From an uncultured archaeon (GTDB taxonomy: Archaea > Asgardarchaeota > Jordiarchaeia > Jordiarchaeales > Jordiarchaeaceae): 11,283 nt of DNA. The notes below the pieces were generated by a model. It worked only from the letters and a program-made list of their open reading frames with translations, made no database searches and was not told the origin of the DNA. Positions 263 through 11,283 of this stretch are shown here, one piece after another. Position numbers and translations under genes: made by a program. Positions within the stretch are counted from its first letter, which is position 1. Each line of letters starts with the position of its first letter. Location: assembly GCA_964510585.1 (NCBI GenBank), contig CAZECW010000172.1:1-11283 (forward strand), read 5' to 3'.

Positions 263-1642
263 CTATTTCTTTGCCTCTTCTAGTGGGTAGCCGGCCTTCT
301 TCCAAGCCATTACTCCTCCCAGTACACTGGTTACTTTTTCGTAACCGTTCATTTTTAGTATGCTGGCCGCTATGCTGGTCTTGTACCCTGAGTCGCAATA
401 AACTACTACTTGTTTTTCTTTTGGCACTTCCCCTAAGCGATTTCTGAGGTCTCCCACCCATATGTGGTGGGCATTCTTCACATGGCCGTCCTGCTTCCAT
501 TTGTTCTCATCTCTTACATCTAGTATGAAGAGGGACTTGTCTTCAAGGTGTTTTTTAAATTCATGAACAGACCAAGTGTTTACCTTCTCGACTTGTTCGG
601 CTTCTCTATACCAAGAAGGGAACCCGCCGGCCAGGTAGCCTTGAAGGTTGTCGTAACCCAGGCGAATAAAGTATCTCACGATTTGGTCGAGGGCAGCATT
701 GTCATCAGTGATGAGTATTATGGGGTCTTCATAGTTTAGCATCCAACCTATGAAGAGAGGCAATCCGCTTTTCCATATGTTTATGCTTTTGGGCACATGT
801 CCACCTGAGAAACCTGTGGGCATCCTTGTGTCCACAATTTGGGCACCTTTTTCAATGTACTTTTTTAGTTCCGCTACACCTATTGCTTTAAGACTGGGTA
901 AGCGGTGTAGGAGGGGAGGACCCTTTTTGTTGTACTCCTCCATTTTTCTAAAGTAGGGGGGTCTATCGAGCTTCTCCCCCATTTTGTGGGCGACAAATGC
1001 TGCTTTACTTTTCAGCTGCAATACTTTATTGGTTTTCTTTTCAAAGCCTATAGTAGTATATTCAAGATCCCCAATTGCTCCTCCGCACACAGAGCCCTTC
1101 CCATGAGCTGGACAAACAATGACTCCATCCTCCAACTTGAGTAGCTTGCCGAATAGACTGTTATACAGATTGCTAGCTAACCTTTCCTTCTCTTTCTCTC
1201 CATAGAGATCTGTTCTTCCAACATCCCCCGCAAATAGTGTATCGCCAGTAAACACCATGTATGTTTCGTTTGAGGATTCTTTATCCTTTAGTGTGATTGA
1301 TATGCTCTCGTCTGTGTGTCCGGGAGTTTCAAGCACTTCCAATTCGAGCATGCCTACTTCAAATTTGTCTCCTTCCTTGACTCCATGTCCATAAGAGAAA
1401 TCTAGCCTGGCACCATGATATATCTCTGCACCAGTCACGTTTGCCAGTTCCATGGAGCCGATGACGTAGTCCTCGTTCCTGTGTGTTTCGAATATGTGAG
1501 TGATTTTCACCTCGTACCTATTTGCAAGATCAAGGTAAATGTCGATGTCTCTTCTTGGATCTATGACTGCAGCTTGATTTCCAGAACCCACAAAATAAGA
1601 GTTGTGCGCTATTATTTCAGACTTCACCTTCTCAAATATCAA
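263..1642 (-). CDS. MBL-fold persulfide dioxygenase-like domain fused to two rhodanese domains (CstB/Blh-like), ~459 aa
   Basis: MBL motifs ETHRNEDY, TPGHT, FTGDTLFAGDVGRTDL and PAHGKGSVCGG. Central rhodanese-like domain (IVDTR...GHVPKSINI) has no catalytic Cys. C-terminal rhodanese has LDVR...GHVKNA...VYCDSGYKTS...GGVMAW. Start moved from 1678 to TTG at 1642 because GGAGGT lies at 1656-1651. Confidence 0.92.
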   Translation of the reverse strand: MIFEKVKSEIIAHNSYFVGSGNQAAVIDPRRDIDIYLDLANRYEVKITHIFETHRNEDYVIGSMELANVTGAEIYHGARLDFSYGHGVKEGDKFEVGMLELEVLETPGHTDESISITLKDKESSNETYMVFTGDTLFAGDVGRTDLYGEKEKERLASNLYNSLFGKLLKLEDGVIVCPAHGKGSVCGGAIGDLEYTTIGFEKKTNKVLQLKSKAAFVAHKMGEKLDRPPYFRKMEEYNKKGPPLLHRLPSLKAIGVAELKKYIEKGAQIVDTRMPTGFSGGHVPKSINIWKSGLPLFIGWMLNYEDPIILITDDNAALDQIVRYFIRLGYDNLQGYLAGGFPSWYREAEQVEKVNTWSVHEFKKHLEDKSLFILDVRDENKWKQDGHVKNAHHIWVGDLRNRLGEVPKEKQVVVYCDSGYKTSIAASILKMNGYEKVTSVLGGVMAWKKAGYPLEEAKK

Positions 1643-1739
1643 ATCAAAAAACCTCCACAAAAACAAATTATTCAACAATTTTCAAGCATATATTGCCTAC
1701 TTAAAACCATGTTTCTGTTTGGAATTAATAAAAAATGTT

Positions 1740-1781
1740 AAAAGGCCTACTAAAACCTACTGGAAGGTGGATAGGCCTTTT
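1740..1781 (-). terminator. Terminator-like inverted repeat just downstream of the sulfurtransferase stop
   Basis: AAAAGGCCTA (1740-1749) and TAGGCCTTTT (1772-1781) form a perfect 10-bp inverted repeat with a 22-nt loop, 9 nt after the stop codon at 1790. On the minus strand the 3' arm ends in a T-run. Confidence 0.45.
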
Positions 1782-1789
1782 TTGGAGAT

Positions 1790-2662
1790 TTATCGTGGGT
1801 TTTTTCCCACCACTGTTGGATTTTCGGGGTAGGCTGTCCACTCTGTGAATGAGCCTTCATATATTTTGACTTTGGGGAATTCCAGGTAGTATTTAAAGAG
1901 GAGAAACTCGTTGGTTGCCTCTCTTCCAGTTCCACAAGAACAAATTATGGTTTTGTCAGGAGTAATTTTGTTGGCGTCTAGGATGGACTGAATCTCTTTA
2001 TCGGGTTTAAGCAGCCTTTTGTTCTTTGCATCCATGAAGTTTGCCCAGGGTAGGTTTATTGCCCCCGGTATGTGGCCAGGCTTAATCCAGGGCCCTTGGC
2101 CCTCGTAAACAGGTGCTGGGCGGGCGTCTAAAAGAATCACGTCTTCTCGATCCTTTATTTTCTTGAATTCCTCATATTCGACATAGAATTCTTTGCGAAC
2201 TTGCGCCTTGAAGTTTGATTCTTCTATCTTGGGAAATTCTTTGGTGAGTTTTCTGCCCTCCTCCTTCCACTTGTCAATGCCTCCGTCAAGAATGTAAACA
2301 TTGTTGTGTCCGAAACGAATTAGGGTATAGGCTACCATGGTCTGCTCCAAACCATCCCCCCAACCCTTAAAGGAACCCACACCCGTATAAACGACCACTG
2401 GCACATCTGGCTTGAGACCGTTTCTGCGAAAAAGTGCTTGGGCAACCTCCTTGGGAACATATTTCCCAGGAATCCCCTTATAAGGAACACGGAACAGTTT
2501 CTCACTCATATAGACTGCTCCTGGTATATGTTCCTGAATATAGTCGTGGATGTCTGGCTGAGTGTCCAGTATCATCAAATTTTCGTCGTCCAAGTGCTCC
2601 GCCAACCAGTCGGTTGAAACCCATTTTACTATGCCCTTTCCAATGGGATATTTCTTAGCCAT
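1790..2662 (-). CDS. sseA: Two-domain rhodanese sulfurtransferase (thiosulfate/3-mercaptopyruvate sulfurtransferase, SseA type), 290 aa
   Basis: N-domain [10 protein letters not shown]...ILDTQP...HIPGAV and [10 protein letters not shown]-domain LLDAR...[11 protein letters not shown], active-site loop [10 protein letters not shown] and C-terminal signature [18 protein letters not shown] upstream of the ATG. Confidence 0.92.
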
Positions 2663-2894
2663 AAAAACATCGCCTCCTCATACAATAAATTAAAATCGAC
2701 CTTACAGCCAATTTGATTATACAATTGATTTATATTATGAGTATTATTTAGTAGCAGTTATCCATTTTAACCTTACCCTAAAATTCTTCACCCCACTAAC
2801 CCGATGTTCAGCAAAAAGAAAAATAATTAAAAGGGAGGGTGCAGAGGTTTCGAACAAGCTTTTTAACGATTGGGTAAATTGCGTAGCCAGCGCT

Positions 2895-3440
2895 TTAGAA
2901 GGATTTGAATTTTTCTTTTGGGGAATTGCATATGGGACACTTATCTGGAGCTTCACCCTCAAGGGTGTAGCCGCAAACAGAGCACACGTTTATTGGCCCA
3001 AAATTGGCGTCTTTGCCCTGGTCTACAGATTTTTTTGCTTTTTCGTATAAGCCCAGATGGGTCTTTTCAGCAGCCAGAGCCCACTCAAAACTATTTGCCG
3101 CAGCCTTTTCGCCTTGAAGGTTAGCCACAGCAATGTAGGCGGGGTACATCTCGTTGATTTCGAAGGTTTCCCCATCAATGCCGGCTTGAAGATCCTCGGA
3201 AGTGTTCGTGGTTCCAAAAATTGCCCCCGAAATAGTAACAGCATCCCCCTTACTCTTTATTATGTGGTAATGATTGCTTGCATGAACCTTCTCGGCAAAA
3301 GATGTTGCCTGAAACAAGCGAGCAACATTGGGAAACTTGTTCTTCTCTGCTCTCTCTGAATAAATTAAATATCTCATGTGAGCCTGGCTCTCACCAGCAT
3401 AAGCACTCCTAAGATTTGTTTCGGTCATTTCCTTAACCAT
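2895..3440 (-). CDS. rbr: Rubrerythrin (di-iron four-helix bundle plus C-terminal rubredoxin domain), ~181 aa
   Basis: NLRSAYAGESQAHMRY, AEKVH and AEKTH (ExxH), GETFEINEMY, and rubredoxin CSVCG...CPIC. Start set at ATG 3440, with GGAGGG at 3455-3450. Confidence 0.95.
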   Translation of the reverse strand: MVKEMTETNLRSAYAGESQAHMRYLIYSERAEKNKFPNVARLFQATSFAEKVHASNHYHIIKSKGDAVTISGAIFGTTNTSEDLQAGIDGETFEINEMYPAYIAVANLQGEKAAANSFEWALAAEKTHLGLYEKAKKSVDQGKDANFGPINVCSVCGYTLEGEAPDKCPICNSPKEKFKSF

Positions 3441-3497
3441 AAAATACAACCCTCCAGTTCATTAAAAATTTGACGAGATATTATATGGGAGAAGAAA

Positions 3498-3510
3498 TAT
3501 ATTAATTTCT
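3498..3510 (-). promoter_or_regulatory. Putative archaeal BRE/TATA promoter for rubrerythrin
   Basis: The minus strand reads AGAAA-TTAATATA, ~60 nt upstream of the ATG at 3440. A similar AAAC-TTAATATA lies upstream of the MFS gene at 10331-10342. Confidence 0.45.
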
Positions 3511-3612
3511 AATCATTTGCGTAAAGCTTCTCACACTTAGGGAAACACTCTTTAAATCTGCTTCCAAGAACATTTGATTTCTACAGTTAAAGGGGCAGAT
3601 GGGAAGCCAAAA

Positions 3613-3795
3613 CCATATGTTTAGGCAGCACGCCATATTTGTGGGAATATGCTTTTGTGAATCTGGGAAGACACGTTTCACCCATTCTTAACACTTTTGC
3701 GCAATAAAAATTAGGGCCAGGAGGATATTGGAGAAAGGCTAGAAGACCAAACTAAACAAAAACCAGATTTCCAAGAGTGCTGTTTAAACATATGG
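3613..3795. repeat. 183-bp element bounded by 19-bp imperfect terminal inverted repeats (MITE-like or long RNA stem)
   Basis: Left arm CCATATGTTTAGGCAGCAC (3613-3631); right arm GTGCTGTTTAAACATATGG (3777-3795); 17/19 complementary. Flanked by the near-direct repeat GCCAAAA (3606-3612) / ACCAAAA (3796-3802). Confidence 0.5.
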
Positions 3796-3867
3796 ACCAA
3801 AAGGCACCAAATTTGCCTTCTATACATAAGCTTCAGCGATCAAGATAAAAAACCTAAAAACAGCACC

Positions 3868-3894
3868 CCTTTTCGAGAAAAGGAGTTTTATAAA
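3868..3894 (+). promoter_or_regulatory. Perfect palindrome (candidate operator) abutting a TATA-like box upstream of the GRE gene
   Basis: CCTTTTC-GA-GAAAAGG (3868-3883) is followed by AG and TTTTATAAA (3886-3894). Confidence 0.4.
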
Positions 3895-3988
3895 GCCAGA
3901 ATGATTTTAAACAGTAAACATTGTGGAGCATTTTAAGTTAAAAAAAGGTTTAAGAAGCAGTTTTTCACATTGTTTTTAGAATTTGGCA

Positions 3989-3996
3989 TTTATAAC
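3989..3996 (+). promoter_or_regulatory. Second TATA-like box; would give a leaderless or near-leaderless GRE transcript
   Basis: TTTATAAC lies 26-38 nt upstream of the in-frame ATGs at 4015 and 4027, neither of which has a clear SD sequence. Confidence 0.3.
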
Positions 3997-4014
3997 CGGG
4001 AAATATTTTGTAGC

Positions 4015-6420
4015 ATGGTGAATTCTATGATCAAATCCTCCCATGATCTTAAGGGTAAGCTCATAGTTAAGGCAGTTCGAAACGTCAGAAGAGGCTACGC
4101 TAAAGATGAAGCCACCAGAGGTATGTTTCGCCCCGGAATTAAACTTGATTTACAGAGGGCACGCCTAATAACTGAATCCTATAGGATGACTGAAGGGGAG
4201 CCCATGCCCATAAGAAGGGCTAAGGCTCTAGACCACATACTCAGCAATTTAAAGATTTATATTCAGCCATGGGAACGCATCGTTGGTAACCACACGGAGG
4301 AGCCAAGCGGTCTCTTCTTTCCAATCGATATGAATTGGAGGTCAGTCTGGAGGGCTGTTAACTCAGTTGAGGGGAGAAGCCTCCTTGACGATAATGGGCG
4401 GAAAGAGTTGGAAGAACTTTGCAAATATTGGGACGGTAAATGCATGAGTGACAGACACAAAGACTTCTTTGGTGGAGAGTTGGCTAAATATTGGAGGTAT
4501 GATGGCACATTTCTGTGGACTCATTGGTCAGAGTTGGGAGTGCCGGATTATGAGAAACTGTTTCGGGTTGGACTGAAGGGGCTAATCAAAGAGGCGGAAG
4601 ATAAGCTTGAAGAAATAGAGAGGGAAGTTCCACGCAACTACGTGGAAAAGAAAGAATTCCTCCTAGCAGTCATAATCGCCCTCAAAGCAGTCATCAAATA
4701 TGCTCGCAGATACTCTAAACTCGCCAGAGAGATGGCTGAAAGGGAAACAAAGGATAAGGATTTGAAGCAGAGGCTTCTGGAGATTGCTGAGACCTGTGAA
4801 TGGGTCCCAGAAAACCCGCCACGCACATTTCTTGAAGCTCTACAATTTTTCTTCTTCATCCACTTGGTACGCTACGTTGAGTATTCCACTCTGGGAATTG
4901 GAGTAAGGTTTGACAAGGTTTTTGGCCCCTACTACGAAAAAGATCTCGCCGAGGGACGCATCACCAGAGAAGAAGCCTTAGAACTATTACAGCTGCTCTG
5001 GGTCAAAATACATGAACTGGGACTAATTTATTCCCCCCTACTTACCGCTATTTATGGAGGTGTAGCCTCCCTACAAGCCATCACCATAGGCGGAACAGAC
5101 TCAGAGGGTAGAGATGTTACAAATGAGGTTAGCTACCTTGTTCTGGACACTGCTCTGTCTATGCGTACACTTGAGCCGAGCATCGCCCTGAGGGTTCACG
5201 ATGGCACTCCAGACGAACTCCTAGAGAAAGCTGTCGATGTAATACGCACGGGCATAGGATACCCCTCACTATTTAATGATAAAGCCATTATTCCCCTACT
5301 TCAGAGATGGAACGTGCCCCTCAAGGATGCCCGCGACTACTCTGTAAGCGGCTGTGTCTACATAGAGATTCCCGGAAAGTGCATGGCCCGCCGCGCCCCA
5401 GGAGGCATCGTACTACCTAAATGTCTGTGGTGGGCTCTCCACCAGGGGAAAGACCCAAAGACGGGAGAGCAAAGGGGCGCGCCCACACCGGATCCCAGAA
5501 CTTTTAAATCTGTGGAGGATGTGATGAACGCTTATCTGGAGCAGGTGCGGTTTTTCTTTGACAAGCAGTTGAAGCTGGAGGACACTTGCCGTGAACTTTA
5601 TGAGAAGTATCTTCCAAGGCCCTATTACTCGGCGATTCTGGACGGCTGTATAGAGAAGGCGATGGATTGCAGAAAGTGGGCTTATCCCACTAACTCGTTC
5701 TGCGTAATTATTGGTCCCACAAATGTTGCAGATTCCATCGCCGCCATTAAGAAGGTTGTTTTCGAGGATAAGAAGGTCACAATGGAAGAACTCATAAAGG
5801 CCATTGATAATAACTGGAAGGGCTATGAGCACATTAGGCAGTTAATGCTTCAAGCGCCCAAGTATGGAAACGATGACGACTATGTGGATGAAATAATGAA
5901 TGAGGTGCAAGTAAAAACTGAAGCAGTGATAGAATCGTTCAGGGATCGCTTTGGGCATCCCTGCCGCGGTGATGGAAGCGGTGTTTCTGCCACTTATGGT
6001 GTTGCGTTTGACACCCCGGCAACTCCTGATGGGCGTTTCGATGGTGAACCATTTGCAGATGCTACCCTTTCTCCCATGATGGGCAGAGATCAGAAAGGCC
6101 CCACTGCTGTTCTCAGCTCTGCAGCCAAAGTCGATGCAATTAAAACTTACAATCATCTGCTTAATCAGAAGTTTTTGCCGAGCTACCTTGAGGGTGACTA
6201 TAAACCCGTTTTCATACAATACCTCAAAACTTGGAGAGAAATGGGGATACCTCACATACAATTCAACATTGTGGACAAGAAAACCCTGATCGAAGCTCAA
6301 ATGAACCCTCAAGAACACCAGGACCTTATTGTACGGGTTGCGGGTTATAGTGCCTACTTTGTAGATCTCAGTAAGGGATTACAGGACGCAATAATAGCCA
6401 GAACCGAACAAAAGTTTTAA
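4015..6420 (+). CDS. Glycyl radical enzyme (PFL2/GRE superfamily) of undetermined reaction class, ~801 aa
   Basis: C-terminal glycyl radical motif LIVRVAGYSAYF (Gly codon 6343-6345); Cys loop DARDYSVSGCVYIEIPG (Cys codon 5353-5355). Typical GRE segments include RARLITESYRMTEGEP..IRRAKAL, PPRTFLEALQ, ITIGG, GYPSLFND, ATPDGR and GPTAVL. Single Cys, not the PFL Cys-Cys pair. Start uncertain (ATG 4015 or 4027); the TTG at 3970 is unlikely. Confidence 0.95.
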   Translation: MVNSMIKSSHDLKGKLIVKAVRNVRRGYAKDEATRGMFRPGIKLDLQRARLITESYRMTEGEPMPIRRAKALDHILSNLKIYIQPWERIVGNHTEEPSGLFFPIDMNWRSVWRAVNSVEGRSLLDDNGRKELEELCKYWDGKCMSDRHKDFFGGELAKYWRYDGTFLWTHWSELGVPDYEKLFRVGLKGLIKEAEDKLEEIEREVPRNYVEKKEFLLAVIIALKAVIKYARRYSKLAREMAERETKDKDLKQRLLEIAETCEWVPENPPRTFLEALQFFFFIHLVRYVEYSTLGIGVRFDKVFGPYYEKDLAEGRITREEALELLQLLWVKIHELGLIYSPLLTAIYGGVASLQAITIGGTDSEGRDVTNEVSYLVLDTALSMRTLEPSIALRVHDGTPDELLEKAVDVIRTGIGYPSLFNDKAIIPLLQRWNVPLKDARDYSVSGCVYIEIPGKCMARRAPGGIVLPKCLWWALHQGKDPKTGEQRGAPTPDPRTFKSVEDVMNAYLEQVRFFFDKQLKLEDTCRELYEKYLPRPYYSAILDGCIEKAMDCRKWAYPTNSFCVIIGPTNVADSIAAIKKVVFEDKKVTMEELIKAIDNNWKGYEHIRQLMLQAPKYGNDDDYVDEIMNEVQVKTEAVIESFRDRFGHPCRGDGSGVSATYGVAFDTPATPDGRFDGEPFADATLSPMMGRDQKGPTAVLSSAAKVDAIKTYNHLLNQKFLPSYLEGDYKPVFIQYLKTWREMGIPHIQFNIVDKKTLIEAQMNPQEHQDLIVRVAGYSAYFVDLSKGLQDAIIARTEQKF

Positions 6421-6480: not shown

Positions 6481-7410
6481 TTGCTAAGGGTGGGTGGAAA
6501 AATTCTGGAGTTAAAGGGACTTATTTTTAATATTCAGAGGTTCAGTATTCATGATGGGCCTGGAATAAGAACCACGGTTTTCTTGAAGGGGTGCCCTCTG
6601 AGATGCCTTTGGTGTTCTAATCCTGAATCTCATGAGCCCTTTCCTACTATTATTGTTCGAGACATCAAATGTGCCAAGTGTGGAAGCTGCGCTTTGGTGT
6701 GTCCTGTTGGAGCTATAAGCTTTGATAGGGAGAGGGGCAGAGTGATTAATTGGATGGCTTGTAATCAATGCTTGGTTTGCGTGGATGCATGCAAGTATCA
6801 GTCTCTTAGCATTTGTGGAAGATATATGGGTGTGAATGAGGTTCTTGGAGAGGTGTTGAGGGATGTGCCCTTCTACAAAAATTCGGGTGGTGGGGTGACT
6901 GTTTCGGGGGGTGAGCCTCTCTTGCAGTGGGAGTTTGTTTCTGAACTTTGCAGAACTTTTAGAGAAAATAAGCTCCATATTGCTCTTGAGACATGCGGCT
7001 TCGCCCCCTGGAAAAATTTTGAGAGGGTTTTGGAACATGTGGATTTGATTCTTTACGATGTTAAGCACCTTGACCCTGTGAAACATAGGGAAGGAACCGG
7101 TGTGGATAATGCGGTAATTTTGGACAACCTCCACAAAGCGGCTAAGAAGAGGCCGGTCTGGATTAGAATACCCCTAATTGCTGGGTATAATGATTCAAGG
7201 GAGCACATTAAAAGCCTGGTAAATTTAGCAAGAGAGGTGGACGCCAAAAAGATTTCATTGTTGCCCTACCATGAAGGTGGGAAATCAAAGTGTGAACAAA
7301 TCGGAAAAACTTATCCCATACCGGACGCTAAAGCCCCGCCAGAAGAGTACGTCAAAGAACTACAAAAATATATTACAGAGTTGGGGGTGGAAGCAACAAT
7401 AGGTCATTAG
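6481..7410 (+). CDS. Glycyl radical enzyme activating enzyme (radical SAM) with a 2x[4Fe-4S] ferredoxin-like insertion
   Basis: FNIQRFSIHDGPGIRTTVFLKGCPLRCLWCSNPES (CxxxCxxC); inserts CAKCGSCALVCP and CNQCLVCVDAC; GGVTVSGGEP; ETCG; LLPYH. Begins 60 nt after the GRE stop. Exact start uncertain (TTG 6481 or GTG 6490). Confidence 0.94.
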   Translation: MLRVGGKILELKGLIFNIQRFSIHDGPGIRTTVFLKGCPLRCLWCSNPESHEPFPTIIVRDIKCAKCGSCALVCPVGAISFDRERGRVINWMACNQCLVCVDACKYQSLSICGRYMGVNEVLGEVLRDVPFYKNSGGGVTVSGGEPLLQWEFVSELCRTFRENKLHIALETCGFAPWKNFERVLEHVDLILYDVKHLDPVKHREGTGVDNAVILDNLHKAAKKRPVWIRIPLIAGYNDSREHIKSLVNLAREVDAKKISLLPYHEGGKSKCEQIGKTYPIPDAKAPPEEYVKELQKYITELGVEATIGH

Positions 7411-7499: not shown

Positions 7500-8156
7500 T
7501 TGGAGATAAAGGCTCTTGTCTTTGATTTGGAGGGTACACTTTACAATTCTAGAGAACTTGCCAATGAGTGGCGGGTTCAGGTATTTAAACTACTCAAGGA
7601 GAAAACTGGGAGAAGCGAGGAGGATATTCTGAAAGAATTTTTAAAGATAACTGAAGAATTAAGGAGACAAGGATTCAGGAGACCTCCCGTCTCCATGATA
7701 GTGGAAAAAGTGGGAATAACTAGGGAAGAGTTCTACAAGGCAATAGACTCGGTGGACGCTAAAAAATTTTTGAAACCCGATCCGGAACTGAAACAAGCTT
7801 TGGAACACATGAAGAAGCGGTGGAAGCTGGCTATGCTTACAAACCTGAGCCGTAAAAGCACCCTCAACATAATTGAAGCCCTAGACCTAGACCCAGGAAT
7901 TTTTAACCCTCTGATTACCGCGAGTGAAATGGAAAAAGGAAAACCAGATCCGGAACCCTTCAAGAAGATAATTGAAGATTTAGGCTTGGAACCCTCATCC
8001 ATAATGATGGTGGGCGACAGCATTTCATCAGATCTAGCACCCGCCAAGAAGCTGGGAATGAAAACCGCTCTTGTCAGCGAAAAAGAAAGCTCACCCCTAG
8101 CTGACATAAAAGTTAAAAACATTGTAGAATTAAAAGAAATTCTTGAAAACGAATAA
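7500..8156 (+). CDS. HAD-superfamily hydrolase (cap-domain type, phosphatase-like), 218 aa
   Basis: Motif I FDLEGTL, motif II LTN, motif III KPDPEPF, motif IV VGDSISSD. TTG start with GAGGTG at 7487-7492. Confidence 0.9.
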   Translation: MEIKALVFDLEGTLYNSRELANEWRVQVFKLLKEKTGRSEEDILKEFLKITEELRRQGFRRPPVSMIVEKVGITREEFYKAIDSVDAKKFLKPDPELKQALEHMKKRWKLAMLTNLSRKSTLNIIEALDLDPGIFNPLITASEMEKGKPDPEPFKKIIEDLGLEPSSIMMVGDSISSDLAPAKKLGMKTALVSEKESSPLADIKVKNIVELKEILENE

Positions 8157-8608: not shown

Positions 8609-10099
8609 ATGTCTGAGAAATTTGATGCGGTGGTTATTGGCGCTGGTTTAGGTGGACTCTCCTCCGCCGCCACCCTAGCTAAGAATGGTCTGAGCGTTTT
8701 GCTTCTTGATAAGCACTACAAGCCCGGCGGGTATGCAACCTCCTTTGTTAGGGGAAGGTTCGAGTTCGAGGTAGCACTCCACGCTCTCTCCGGACTAGAT
8801 CTTGACCGTAAACGTGGTTACATGTACCGGATGCTTGAAGATCTCGGAATCACAAAGAGGGTGGAATTCGTTAAACTTCCCACGCTCTACAAATCGGTCT
8901 ATCCCGATTTTGAGTTTGTGATGCCCGCCGGGAGAGAAAATATTGAGAATGTTCTATTTGACACTTTTCCCAAGGAGTCGGAAGGCATAAAACGTTTCCT
9001 TGACCGAATAAGTGCTACAAACGCTGTTCTCACCGGGCTCCAGCGGGGTGGAGTGACAAAAGAGCAGATTCAGGAACACTTTGTAAAGTATCAAGACAAG
9101 ACACTCGCAGAAGTGTTAAACGCAGACGTTAAAGATGTTAGGGCTCGCGCAATCCTCGCCCAGCTTACTGGCTACTTTGGACTTCCACCCTCAAAGGTTT
9201 CCTACATATTAGCTGCGTCTGGCCTAGACACCTACTTCATGTATGGTGGAGCCCAAATAAGAGGAACCTCCCACACCCTGGCAAACGCCTTCGTAGAATC
9301 CATTACCGAATTCGGGGGAGAAGTTCGACTAAGCAACGGAGCCAAGAAAATCCTCACAGAAGGAGGCAGAGTCACTGGAGTCATAACAGAGAAAAACGAG
9401 AAAATAGAAACAGATTACATAGTTTCAAATGTTAACCCCTTTGCGCTGTGCAACTTAATTGGCCTGGATAAGATGCCTGAGTCCTTCTTGGAGAAGCTGC
9501 GCTCAAAGCCCATAGCCATAGCAACAACCTGTGTTTACTTGGGGTTGGATGTACCGCACACCGAGCTGGGACTAGACGAATTTGAAATGTTTATTGGCTC
9601 AAGCTATGACTTTGACCGACTCTACAAAACTAGTAGAAGTCTGGAGCCAACCGAGATTGGACTTGCCACCTACAACTTGGCTTATTCCGACGCCTCACCA
9701 CCAGGAACAACCATTATGGTACTCACAACCATTTCCAATGGCGATGCTTGGACAAAACTGGATCCCGCACAGTACTTTGAAACAAAGACGAGAGTAGGTG
9801 ACAGAATGTTAAAAATAGCTGAGGAGAGAGTGGTTCCGGGACTAAGGGAACACATTGAGGTAGTGGAAGTATCCACACCAATCACCAACATGCGGTACAC
9901 TGGAAACCCAGACGGCACAATACTTGGAACCCCCTACACTCCCGACAATGTTTTGGGAAAACGCTTGCCGCAGGAAGGACCATTTAAAGGACTTTACCTT
10001 GCCGGAGCATGGACCCAGATTGGTGGAGGATACCAAACCTGTTTGATGTCTGGCAACTGGGCCGCAAACAGAATTCTCAGCGAGGTTAAAAGAAAATAA
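8609..10099 (+). CDS. FAD-dependent oxidoreductase of the phytoene desaturase / retinol saturase (CrtI-like, COG1233) superfamily, 496 aa
   Basis: N-terminal Rossmann motif FDAVVIGAGLGGLSSAATLAKNG..V.LLDK...PGGYATSF.RG.FEFE. C-terminal TPIT..RYT.N.DG...G and GLYLAGAWT..GGGY...LMSG..AA. RBS GGAGAG upstream. No carotenoid synthesis genes nearby, so the substrate is not assigned. Confidence 0.88.
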   Translation: MSEKFDAVVIGAGLGGLSSAATLAKNGLSVLLLDKHYKPGGYATSFVRGRFEFEVALHALSGLDLDRKRGYMYRMLEDLGITKRVEFVKLPTLYKSVYPDFEFVMPAGRENIENVLFDTFPKESEGIKRFLDRISATNAVLTGLQRGGVTKEQIQEHFVKYQDKTLAEVLNADVKDVRARAILAQLTGYFGLPPSKVSYILAASGLDTYFMYGGAQIRGTSHTLANAFVESITEFGGEVRLSNGAKKILTEGGRVTGVITEKNEKIETDYIVSNVNPFALCNLIGLDKMPESFLEKLRSKPIAIATTCVYLGLDVPHTELGLDEFEMFIGSSYDFDRLYKTSRSLEPTEIGLATYNLAYSDASPPGTTIMVLTTISNGDAWTKLDPAQYFETKTRVGDRMLKIAEERVVPGLREHIEVVEVSTPITNMRYTGNPDGTILGTPYTPDNVLGKRLPQEGPFKGLYLAGAWTQIGGGYQTCLMSGNWAANRILSEVKRK

Positions 10100-10399
10100 A
10101 AAGTACAGTGTACCACATTATCAAGGATTTAGAAAAGCCCTTACAGAAAGTGCGTAGATAAGAGGAGTAACTTGAACTTTAAAATCCTTTACTATTAACA
10201 TAATTAGGAGAGGGGGATCTCGGAACTATTCTAAATTCTCTTATTCACAGTTATGAGTGGTATTCTCCGTTCTTAACTCTGCAGCTAAGATAATTGTTTA
10301 ACGAAGAAGTTTACTAGTTTGGATGCGGATAAACTTAATATATTTCCGGTAAAATTTTATTTTTTTGCTTACATCGATGCTTTGGAAGTCAGTGCTTTT

Positions 10400-11146
10400 A
10401 TGACAGTTACTTTACCTCCAGAGAAGGTTTCTAAGGGTTTAAAAAACATAATTTATGACGGTATTTGCTCCCAATCCCTATTCACCCTCGCTGGTGGGCC
10501 ATTCCTAGTGGCTTTTGCTCTTATTATGGGAGCAGATAATGCATATATAGGATACATTACCGCGGTATCTTTTCTAAGCCAGTTGATTCAAATCCCCACC
10601 ATATACTTGATTGAAAAGCTTGGCAGGAGGAAACTCATAACAATAATAGGTTCCCTAACAAGCCGAGCTATGTGGATTGTTATTGCTCTTATGCCCTTTT
10701 TTTCTCCACAAAACCTACTTCTACTACTTGGCGTTTTTTCCACAAGTTCCATACTTGCTAATGTGTCCGCCTGTAGTTGGAACTCCTGGATGAGAGATTT
10801 AGTTCCTATAGAAACCCGTGGAGTGTTTTTCGCAAAACGTTTCAAGCTGAGTTATGCCCTCAGCTCCACGCTGGGCATTCTGGCTGGACTGTTCATTGAT
10901 AATTTGGGCGGAGTGTCTTTAGAGATTCTAAAAAGTTACTCTATAATTTTCATCATTGGGACAATTTTCGGCTTGATGAGCGTTTTTTTCATTACACGCA
11001 TCCCTGAACCAGCTATGGAAAAATCAAAATTCAGCCTTGAACTGTTGAAACAGCCATTCTTAGATAAAAACTTCAGAAAACTCCTTTCCACCCTAGGCTT
11101 TTGGAGTTTTGCCTCTAATCTCGCAACACCATTCGTAGCAGTTTAC
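10400..11146 (+). pseudogene. MFS transporter, N-terminal ~249 codons; apparently interrupted at ~11147 (missing from the ORF track because no stop lies inside the window)
   Basis: My translation reads MTVTLPPEKVSKGLKNIIYDGICSQSLFTLAGGPFLVAFAL...LIEKLGRRKLITII...SWNSWMRDLVPIETRGVFFAKR...IPEP...LKQPFLDKNFRKLL..LGFWSFASNLATPFVAVY. It has hydrophobic TM helices, an MFS loop motif (EKLGRRK) and the start of TM7. After this the same frame becomes polar and non-membrane (KLLYPKVSYRYGAPIFPNCFYKEVCRQAFKE...). Confidence 0.72.
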
Positions 11147-11283
11147 AAGCTACTTTATCCTAAAGTGTCATATAGGTATGGAGCTCCAATTTTTCCAAAT
11201 TGTTTCTACAAGGAAGTATGCCGACAGGCTTTTAAAGAGAACATTTTAGTGCGGGTAAATAGAAAGATGCACTGCGCCATGGG
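11147..11283. other. Foreign-looking segment replacing the MFS C-terminal half (possible inserted element end, rearrangement or assembly junction)
   Basis: No frame clearly continues the MFS. The junction follows GTTTAC. The segment starts with a small palindrome, ACTTTA-TCC-TAAAGT (11152-11166). Confidence 0.35.

Follow-up and report, generated by a model that had tools for sequence, protein, structure and literature searches.

A glycyl radical enzyme with tyrosine in its cysteine loop, encoded by an Asgard archaeon, belongs to a distinct and probably non-eliminase clade

Results

The stretch of DNA analysed here (the window; 11,283 nucleotides of contig CAZECW010000172.1) carries at 4015-6420 on the forward strand a gene whose product is a glycyl radical enzyme (GRE) of the PFL-like branch of the superfamily, according to its domains (Pfam PFL-like PF02901, 3e-174; Gly_radical PF01228, 2e-26), its RVAGY motif, its Cys462 and the adjacent activase gene. 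The open frame (3970-6420, forward strand) begins with a TTG at 3970, from which residue numbers are counted here, and the true start is likely the ATG at 4015, giving the 801-aa protein P0009, which is the recorded protein and is 100% identical to the ORF product. The Cys loop, SVSGCVYIEIPG (5341-5376, forward strand), reads in frame S-V-S-G-C-V-Y-I-E-I-P-G, with Cys462 encoded by TGT at 5353-5355, Tyr464 by TAC at 5359-5361 and Glu466 at 5365-5367, and both loop and codons agree with a preliminary description of this DNA. On the same strand follow Arg474-Arg475 (5389-5394) and then Gly478-Gly479, placed by mapping in the multiple alignment, BLASTP to the BSS-like protein P0186 and P0186-to-TutD numbering, and the glycyl radical motif LIVRVAGYSAYF (R-V-A-G792-Y, 6334-6348; Gly792 codon 6343-6345). 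This motif is intact, as had been described, and with motifs, domains and adjacent activase all present the enzyme looks functional.

The activase gene (6481-7410, forward strand) encodes a radical SAM enzyme (Pfam Radical_SAM/Fer4) with a CX3CX2C motif and two ferredoxin-like Cys clusters, and scores 351.6 bits with the NCBIfam model TIGR02494 (PFLE_PFLC) against a cutoff of 174. Downstream in the same orientation lie a HAD-IA family hydrolase (7500-8156; Pfam and NCBIfam matches) and, as context only, a CrtI/phytoene-desaturase-family FAD oxidoreductase (8609-10099) and an MFS transporter (10319-11281) that runs off the window end. Among 44 loci of the family the activase lies near the GRE in 31 and immediately downstream in 25. 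The HAD hydrolase after GRE and activase is kept only in Jordarchaeia and Lokiarchaeia relatives (loci L001 and L014) and is absent from Hodarchaeota and bacterial loci; the FAD oxidoreductase is kept only in the congeneric L014. By analogy with E. coli ybiY-ybiW-ybiV, the archaeal hydrolase may point to a phosphorylated substrate, and would then count against the explanation that we favour below.

Bacterial neighbourhoods are mosaic, and their only consistent part is the GRE with its activase, with or without a TetR gene. The commonest neighbours there are TetR regulators (at least 10 of the 44 loci, some with a YsiA/FadR-like C-terminal domain), FadD-like CoA ligases (9 loci, about one-fifth) and acyl-CoA dehydrogenases (6 loci); thiolase, MaoC and CoA-transferase genes are also present. 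Near the archaeal GREs acyl-CoA genes are absent, the HAD hydrolase standing in their place. No ORF of 40-130 aa near the GRE is conserved among 41 non-redundant loci, nor is there one in the window, and thus BssB/C- or MasC/E-type subunits are not encoded at these loci. The small ORFs upstream of the gene (3450-3970) are neither conserved nor Cys-rich in the way of BssB/C. Recurrent aldehyde dehydrogenase, microcompartment or aldolase genes were likewise not found at the 41 loci, a single Aldedh-family gene being present in locus L011. In the Lokiarchaeia relative a flavodoxin-like gene lies between rubrerythrin and the GRE, of which no remnant was seen upstream of the GRE in the window, and one locus of the family includes an RND efflux pump.

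The sequence GCVY[ILMV][ED][ILV]PG was found in all of about 115 full-length homologues (66-84% identity), and GCVY-x-[E/D]-x-PG in all of about 120 homologues (63-96% identity) and also in tandem paralogues. Close homologues all keep the tyrosine and none has GCVE or GCVQ, so that GCVY is conserved across the cluster. In an alignment of 31 diverse members G-C-V-Y is invariant; the acid (E/D) at Cys+4 is conserved as strictly as Tyr464 in all members, the RVAGY motif shows no variation across the family, and in the family alignment Arg474 (R459 in P0009 numbering) never varies, and R460 is conserved to at least 90%. Mean column identity across phyla is 76%, which indicates strong purifying selection.

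Homologues occur in Asgard archaea, Thermodesulfobacteriota, Syntrophales, Chloroflexota and Bacillota, the named hosts including Smithella, Syntrophaceae, Peptococcaceae and the cultured Desulfatibacillum alkenivorans DSM 16219, which has two GCVY copies in tandem. Three congeneric genomes carry the same gene at 96-97% identity, and it occurs also in hot-spring metagenomes from several studies. A Candidatus Jordarchaeia MAG has a 96%-identical gene in the same gene order as the window, and therefore the archaeal host proposed in the preliminary description is upheld. The family itself, however, is not archaeal in character, as it consists mostly of bacterial proteins, among which the Asgard copies are nested as a single clade. 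Their patchy occurrence (8 of 301 Asgard genomes) together with this nesting fits horizontal transfer, by which the Asgard copy was probably acquired. We found no paper on GREs with tyrosine in the Cys loop and an unassigned function; the paper describing Jordarchaeia does not mention GREs, and no report on the GCVY paralogue was found in the Desulfatibacillum and Smithella literature.

Characterised GREs share only 29-38% identity with the window GRE. The best PDB match is GDH (485 bits), and the solved GREs all score 345-485 bits, a ranking in which raw similarity is slightly nearer to GDH than to BSS (377 bits), counter to the explanation favoured below. None of the NCBIfam equivalogs passes: PFL2-3 reaches 590 bits against a cutoff of 678, and the IAD and HPAD models give partial-length matches of 429 and 327 bits against cutoffs of 1100 and 1150. 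When sequences were clustered at 50%, one representative of the family stood at 63% identity and the next match fell to 47%. The suggestion of an uncharacterised GRE subclass is thus borne out in that characterised relatives are found at low identity only and no equivalog fits, and a search for clustering at high identity with a characterised GRE returned none. A formate-lyase (PFL, TdcE) was rejected, since the adjacent Cys-Cys of these enzymes is lacking (the loop has Gly461-Cys462) and the PflB match is only 94 bits.

Enzyme classes were anchored by PDB matches, NCBIfam matches and loop motifs, and the named reference sequences covered were E. coli PflB, PflD and YbiW. Two candidate anchors were rejected, P0142 for MasD as it is not MasD-like, and P0173 (loop GCIY) as a stand-in for Archaeoglobus fulgidus PFL2 as it is unrelated to 2F3O. 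The A. fulgidus enzyme itself (PFL2/PflD, PDB 2F3O) resembles the window GRE in being an archaeal PFL-like GRE, probably also of bacterial origin, whose role is disputed between dehydratase and alkylsuccinate synthase; in contrast, at 401 bits and about 32% identity it lies outside the GCVY family. An AF2 model of the window GRE has a pTM of 0.87, with pLDDT below 50 in the pocket loops 337-352, 655-661 and 775-788 (P0009 numbering), and Foldseek against the PDB gives TM scores of 0.84-0.88 to every PFL2-type GRE, so that the classes are not told apart by fold.

In HMMER alignments to solved GREs, Cys462 aligns with GDH C433 and BSS C493, and Tyr464 occupies the column of the eliminase/isomerase glutamate, as the preliminary description had proposed. 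GDH (E435), IslA, IseG, PflD, HplG and HpzG have GC-x-E at this column. The same description gave GCVQ as the loop of both indoleacetate and phenylacetate decarboxylases, which is right for the latter (PAD, Cys482/Gln484) but not for the former (IAD), which keeps Glu502 (PMC13450708). None of the polar residues that form the eliminase pocket is kept in the window GRE, each being deleted or replaced by leucine, glycine or alanine: of those mapped from GDH, H164 and Y640 are deleted, and H281 corresponds to Leu, S282 to Gly, Y339 to Leu and D447 to Ala, with E435 corresponding to Tyr464. The hydrocarbon-pocket positions of BSS are hydrophobic residues in the GCVY clade (I384 to I/V361, F385 to Y362, L391 to L368, V709 to V672). 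The fumarate-anchoring R508 of BSS (R492 of MASS) corresponds to the invariant Arg474 in the multiple alignment and in BLASTP to P0186, a correspondence at the level of alignment. The other fumarate contacts of BSS, W613, N615 and Q707, are not kept in the clade. The contacts common to BSS and MASS are only the Arg and the oxyanion hole of the Cys loop (PMC12358834).

In a maximum-likelihood tree (LG+C20 PMSF, PflB as outgroup), with which a quick tree agrees, the GCVY clade has support of 100/98 and its archaeal subclade 100/99. It falls within a 26-row subgroup (100/100) of a superclade (100/100) whose sampled members all lack Glu at Cys+2, the residue there being W, V, I, S, T, G, R or Q outside GCVY. 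The superclade also contains BSS-like enzymes (P0186), and the subgroup with P0186 does not include the GCVY clade, which belongs to its sister group. PAD-like representatives (P0180, P0219 and P0235, with CxQ and Trp at Cys+13) fall in another clade. On these sequence data, the GCVY clade is a distinct one within a Glu-less superclade to which the X-succinate synthases also belong. The tyrosine does depart from the eliminase pattern, as first noted, but it is not a unique departure, since the whole surrounding superclade lacks the glutamate and Tyr rather marks this clade.

Discussion

It seems that the window GRE is best explained as a competent non-eliminase enzyme of the GCVY clade that acts on a carboxylate-anchored hydrophobic substrate, and from sequence comparison we put the probability of this explanation as a whole at about 60%. 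Judging by the intact motifs, the activase would install the radical on Gly792, and Cys462 would become the working thiyl radical. The enzyme would not be a 1,2-eliminase or isomerase, the base glutamate being replaced by the invariant Tyr464, which is paired with the invariant acid Glu466. From the alignment, Arg474 would bind a carboxylate, so that Arg474/475, together with the backbone of the Cys loop, may hold a carboxylate-bearing substrate or co-substrate. The thiyl radical would then take a hydrogen from the hydrophobic moiety, and the Tyr464-Glu466 pair may function as a proton or H-atom relay or as a shaper of the pocket. The product may pass into acyl-CoA metabolism, as FadD-like ligases, acyl-CoA dehydrogenases and acyl-CoA-type TetR regulators are often found in the bacterial loci. 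X-succinate synthases depend on small subunits; the GCVY enzyme would do without them.

More tentatively, the GCVY enzyme may catalyse a GRE reaction that has not been described before. The enzyme could make or break C-C bonds, without small subunits, in a hydrophobic substrate anchored by a carboxylate, or it could use Tyr464-Glu466 as a relay for H atoms or proton-coupled electrons. We regard such novelty as a real possibility, though one on which we would not yet bet.

Of the chemistries already known in GREs, decarboxylation of a hydrophobic carboxylic acid of the aryl- or alkyl-acetate type comes first, although we consider it unlikely. Here Arg474 and the Cys-loop backbone would grip the carboxylate, and Tyr464-Glu466 would supply the proton, as Glu505 does in HPAD; the conserved Arg does imply an anionic group. 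A precedent is offered by PAD (PhdB), a single-subunit GRE known from anoxic sediment and sewage communities. It has Gln484 in place of Glu at Cys+2, its neighbours are limited to an activase and a regulator, and what donates its proton is not known. The GCVY enzymes are also single-subunit with only activase and regulator as regular partners, and a toxic hydrocarbon product would be in keeping with the TetR genes and, in one locus, the RND efflux pump. However, the likeness does not extend to the active site, since PhdB has CxQ and Trp at Cys+13 whereas the GCVY enzymes carry Tyr at Cys+2 and Arg at Cys+12/13; the PAD residues C482/Q484/W495/Y691 are thus not reproduced, and neither is the HPAD/IAD signature (CxE with a second Glu or Arg), the loop being CxY. 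The separate position of the PAD-like representatives in the tree and the IAD and HPAD model scores far under cutoff, from partial matches, argue in the same direction, and with CoA ligases and acyl-CoA dehydrogenases adjoining, an acid is more to be expected as product or intermediate than a hydrocarbon as product.

A genuine X-succinate synthase (alkyl- or arylalkyl-succinate synthase), adding a hydrocarbon to fumarate, is in our view quite improbable. Its case is built on the 100/100 superclade common to GCVY and the BSS-like P0186, the invariant Arg at the BSS R508/MASS R492 position followed by Gly-Gly, and the predicted hydrophobic pocket positions. The hosts add to it, as some degrade hydrocarbons or fatty acids (Desulfatibacillum and Smithella are hydrocarbon degraders), and so does the FadD-like ligase that adjoins the GRE in 9 loci. 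In metagenomic papers this annotation has been given to similar Asgard GREs with a "GC-motif", and PflD-type GREs of Hermodarchaeota have been named Ass/Bss (PMC8163825). In contrast, the small subunits are missing that PMC6776118 and a review describe as found in fumarate-adding enzymes alone and as necessary for them, with no beta, gamma or delta subunit of the BssB/C or MasC/E type at any of the 41 non-redundant loci (0/41). Compared with the known synthases (BssA/TutD, PDB 4PKC and 5BWE; MasD, PDB 9O8U), identity is about 30% (377-383 bits), the loop is GCVY-x-E against L/A-C-M-S (LCMS in these synthases), W613, N615 and Q707 are not conserved, and GCVY is a sister lineage of the BSS-like group. 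No downstream pathway operon of the bbs or ass type is present, and the Asgard hosts are without a linked pathway. Limonenylsuccinate synthase was rejected as a relative, since it comes with small subunits and shares 61% identity with BssA (PMC12583861).

A divergent 1,2-eliminase or isomerase, with Glu466, Asp668 or a Tyr phenolate as the base and a substrate that is possibly phosphorylated or hydroxylated, is still harder to accept and appears very unlikely. The best raw sequence and fold matches of the window GRE do belong to this group: the glycerol and 1,2-propanediol dehydratases (PDB 1R8W, 5I2A and 9RCO) together with CutC, HypD, IseG/IslA and HpsG, with GDH and PD at the top, the B12-independent dehydratases/eliminases having 33-34% identity (Foldseek), TM 0.87-0.88 and 420-485 bits. 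These enzymes are likewise single-subunit and have a PFLE_PFLC-type activase with two auxiliary clusters. In addition, the acid at Cys+4 is strictly conserved, and the archaeal order of GRE, activase and HAD hydrolase recalls the E. coli ybiY-ybiW-ybiV genes, whose GRE acts on a sugar phosphate. However, all characterised GRE eliminases and isomerases keep CxE (2026 review, PMC13450708), where GCVY has Tyr, and every other polar residue of the GDH pocket (H164, H281, S282, Y339, D447 and Y640) is lost. The tree sets GCVY apart from the CxE groups with full support, and the 41 loci are without recurrent aldehyde-processing, microcompartment or aldolase genes. Finally, an inactive relic or an annotation or sequencing artefact is scarcely credible, as it has nothing but the unusual loop in its favour, against an open frame with intact motifs and an adjacent activase, 76% mean column identity across phyla and independent recovery of the gene from several metagenomes.

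GREs run chemically hard anaerobic reactions, and new classes of them have opened up trimethylamine formation, sulfonate cleavage and hydrocarbon activation. Whole GRE clades are still unassigned, and no archaeal PFL-like GRE has a known function (2026 review, PMC13450708). If the reaction of the GCVY enzyme should indeed prove to be an undescribed one, it would found a new class of GREs, and an archaeal PFL-like GRE would for the first time have an assigned function. The GCVY clade is a well-defined target for such work, with strong conservation over distant bacterial phyla and Asgard archaea, a diagnostic Cys-x-Tyr-x-Glu loop, kinship to hydrocarbon-activating enzymes without their troublesome small subunits, and a cultured host in D. 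alkenivorans. Once found, its substrate could reveal a widespread step of anoxic carbon cycling, and the enzyme could offer a simpler scaffold for radical C-H functionalisation.

Results

The glycyl radical enzyme and its homologues

One long ORF of the window (3970-6420, forward strand) encodes a glycyl radical enzyme (GRE) with PFL-like (3e-174) and Gly_radical (2e-26) domains in Pfam. Translation probably begins at the ATG at 4015, which yields the recorded 801-aa protein P0009; residues are numbered here from the TTG at 3970. Translation and alignments to solved GREs agree with the preliminary description on the Cys loop SVSGCVYIEIPG at 5341-5376 (forward strand), in which TGT at 5353-5355 is Cys462 and TAC at 5359-5361 is Tyr464, and the glycyl motif region LIVRVAGYSAYF lies near the C-terminus on the same strand. 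HMMER alignments to solved GREs set Tyr464 in the column where glycerol dehydratase (GDH), IslA, IseG, PflD, HplG and HpzG have their catalytic Glu. The gene directly downstream (6481-7410) encodes a GRE activase that combines CX3CX2C with two ferredoxin-like clusters (351.6 bits on TIGR02494, cutoff 174).

Searching 5.8 billion proteins yielded more than 120 with 66-84% identity to the window GRE, among them proteins from Lokiarchaeia, Hodarchaeota, Thermodesulfobacteriota, Syntrophales, Chloroflexota and Bacillota, and every full-length homologue of this set has both GCVY[ILMV][ED][ILV]PG and RVAG[YF]. Across 31 diverse family members, aligned with a mean column identity of 76%, every sequence has G-C-V-Y, P, G, K and the first Arg behind the loop; at Cys+4 at least 90% have Glu, with Asp as the acid in some members and in tandem paralogues. 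The mark of the clade is Cys-x-Tyr-x-Glu/Asp. A genome scan found the same gene, 96% identical at the protein level, in a congeneric Candidatus Jordarchaeia MAG (L014), whose gene order is unchanged and whose nucleotide sequence is 85-88% identical; the window's organism is therefore an Asgard archaeon of this group, and the gene is also found in hot-spring metagenomes from several studies. A private mutation or sequencing error at Tyr464 is excluded, as Tyr is kept in every full-length homologue and the gene recurs across genomes and metagenomes.

Relation to characterised enzymes

Comparisons with the PDB, NCBIfam and a clustered library answered no to the question of whether the GCVY family is CHARACTERISED. 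Among solved enzymes GDH is the closest (1R8W, 485 bits), and the characterised GREs as a whole span only 345-485 bits and 29-34% identity, in line with the earlier claim of an uncharacterised subclass. No NCBIfam equivalog came near its cutoff, and the PFL2-3 subfamily model was also under it (590 vs 678). The library clustered at 50% identity contains one GCVY-family representative (63%), the next clusters being at most 47% identical. According to a June 2026 review of the superfamily, PFL-like GREs of characterised function are all bacterial, and entire clades are still unvalidated (PMC13450708). The same review confirms that CxE is kept in all eliminases, as previously stated, and in isomerases. 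The Gln at Cys+2 (GCVQ) ascribed to both arylacetate decarboxylases holds for phenylacetate decarboxylase (Cys482/Gln484), but was wrong for indoleacetate decarboxylase because that enzyme has Glu502 (PMC13450708).

Maximum-likelihood trees combined family members and tandem paralogues with the closest representatives of the 50% clusters and three E. coli enzymes, PflD, YbiW and, as outgroup, PflB. Four features recur in a careful tree (LG+C20+F+G4 PMSF, UFBoot/SH-aLRT support) and a quick 84-row tree. A 36-row superclade (100/100), in which none of the 36 members has Glu at Cys+2, splits into a group (95/75) with the representative P0186 (755 bits to TutD/BssA, loop LCMSPG) and a group of 26 rows (100/100). 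The GCVY clade (12 rows, 100/98) lies within the latter, its successive sisters having V and then W/I/Q at Cys+2, and representatives like phenylacetate decarboxylase (CxQ, Trp at Cys+13) are placed elsewhere. The clade is thus allied to the X-succinate synthases rather than to the eliminases. The uncharacterised subclass of the preliminary proposal stands; lack of Glu does not set it apart, the surrounding superclade being a large unexplored, Glu-less radiation.

The archaeal copies (window, Lokiarchaeia and Hodarchaeota; n=3) group together (100/99) within the bacterial sequences, and the family occurs in 8 of 301 sampled Asgard genomes (4/6 of the window's own genus and 4/68 of one other family). 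This nesting and patchy distribution therefore indicate horizontal acquisition. The 3.78-Mb genome of the window itself encodes five PFL-like GREs, which is unusually rich for an archaeon. The other four are at C117:7702-9744, C125:11481-13460, C62:69300-70760 and C158:4800-6587 (loci L091, L093, L094 and L095); three have CxE loops (GCVEP, GCVEP, GCLEN), and the C158 enzyme shares 62% identity with P0138, a representative of the Glu-less sister clade (loop SCMIP), and 46% with the GCVY enzyme.

Active site

In the alignment to GDH, His164 and Tyr640 fall in deletions, and His281, Ser282, Tyr339, Glu435 and Asp447 correspond to Leu308, Gly309, Leu368, Tyr464 and Ala476. The suggestion that Tyr removes the eliminase base is borne out, and by alignment the whole eliminase machinery, more than the Glu alone, appears to be gone. 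Benzylsuccinate synthase (BSS) numbering was taken through P0186 and confirmed by multiple alignment, and the Cys-loop stretch by pairwise BLASTP. BSS R508 corresponds to the invariant Arg474, which is followed by Arg475 (at least 90% conserved), and Gly512-Gly513 match Gly478-Gly479. The positions I384, F385, L391, L492, M494 and S495 become I/V361, Y362, L368, G461, V463 and Y464, and W613, N615, I617, Q707, V709 and L711 become N/H575, F/I577, V/I579, S670, V672 and A674. Since the Arg is retained and BSS and the MasD-containing synthase share as fumarate contacts only the Arg and the Cys-loop oxyanion hole (PMC12358834), the clade would seem to keep this common anchor together with a hydrophobic pocket, but not the contacts specific to BSS. 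An AF2 model (pLDDT 81, pTM 0.87) is unreliable in precisely the pocket loops.

Genomic context

Among 44 family loci (41 non-redundant), an activase is near the GRE in 31 and directly downstream in 25. At least 10 bacterial loci have TetR-family regulators upstream of the GRE, some with a YsiA/FadR-like C-terminal domain. In nine loci the GRE adjoins a FadD-type AMP ligase (about 550 aa; best PDB match A. fulgidus FadD-1), and six have an acyl-CoA dehydrogenase. Thiolase, MaoC, 3-hydroxyacyl-CoA dehydrogenases, CoA-transferase, SDRs, MFS transporters and sigma-54 activators are sporadic. One Thermodesulfobacteriota-type locus (L005 1299-4977) adjoins a three-subunit xanthine-dehydrogenase-family molybdoenzyme (FAD, 2Fe-2S and MoCo subunits), two 3-hydroxyacyl-CoA dehydrogenases and an acyl-CoA dehydrogenase, a single case. 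Four loci (L027, L038, L018, L028) have extra GCVY paralogues in tandem, with four copies in a Chloroflexia MAG (L027 2054-12852) and two in the cultured Desulfatibacillum alkenivorans DSM 16219 (L038 6707-12458), flanking one activase. Small differences between the loops of these paralogues (GCVYLDIPGKNNNARR, GCVYLELPGKNISHR) suggest substrate diversification within the clade.

Archaeal loci have no shared partner but the activase, joined in Jordarchaeia and Lokiarchaeia by a HAD-IA hydrolase (window 7500-8156, forward strand, after the activase) that bacterial GCVY loci lack. The order parallels E. coli K-12 ybiY (activase)-ybiW (GRE)-ybiV (HAD sugar phosphatase; L089 4214-8512). YbiW acts on a sugar phosphate, the likeness is one of gene order, and the HAD subfamilies probably differ; the neighbour may give a weak hint of a phosphorylated substrate. 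Divergent and upstream of the GRE (263-3449, reverse strand) are rubrerythrin, a two-domain rhodanese and an MBL-fold-plus-rhodanese protein, a trio kept in the Lokiarchaeia (L001 5809-8890) and Jordarchaeia (L014 4276-7412) relatives and not found in bacterial GCVY loci, which may provide oxidative-stress or sulfur-transfer protection. The gap of about 560 bp upstream of the GRE (3450-4014) has no conserved ORF; in L001 it holds a flavodoxin-like FMN reductase gene (9066-9632), of which no remnant is detectable in the window. Behind the HAD gene, a CrtI/phytoene-desaturase-family FAD oxidoreductase (8609-10099) and, further downstream, an MFS transporter (10319-11281), both on the forward strand, are conserved only in the congeneric L014.

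Discussion

The window encodes an intact GRE and its activase from a distinct, strongly conserved and uncharacterised clade, whose chemistry is probably not 1,2-elimination. Arg474/475 and the Cys-loop backbone would anchor an anion, probably a carboxylate, on a substrate that would otherwise be hydrophobic, and the bacterial pathway would connect with acyl-CoA metabolism. The Tyr-Glu pair may relay a proton or hydrogen atom to or from Cys462, or merely shape the pocket.

Decarboxylation of a hydrophobic acid is an unlikely alternative, as both the phylogeny and the CoA-ligase context speak against it. That the enzyme is a true X-succinate synthase is slightly more doubtful still, even with the shared anchor: the clade is placed in the sister group of the BSS-like group, and no conserved small ORF (40-130 aa) lies beside the GRE in the 41 non-redundant loci, so the beta/gamma subunits, considered peculiar to enzymes that add fumarate (PMC6776118), are absent. 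A divergent eliminase using the Cys+4 acid is argued against by the loss of the entire polar pocket.

The GCVY enzymes are thus an uncharacterised GRE subclass, and the clade is a strong target for enzyme discovery because it is conserved and broad, is present in a cultured sulfate reducer and is related to hydrocarbon-activating enzymes.
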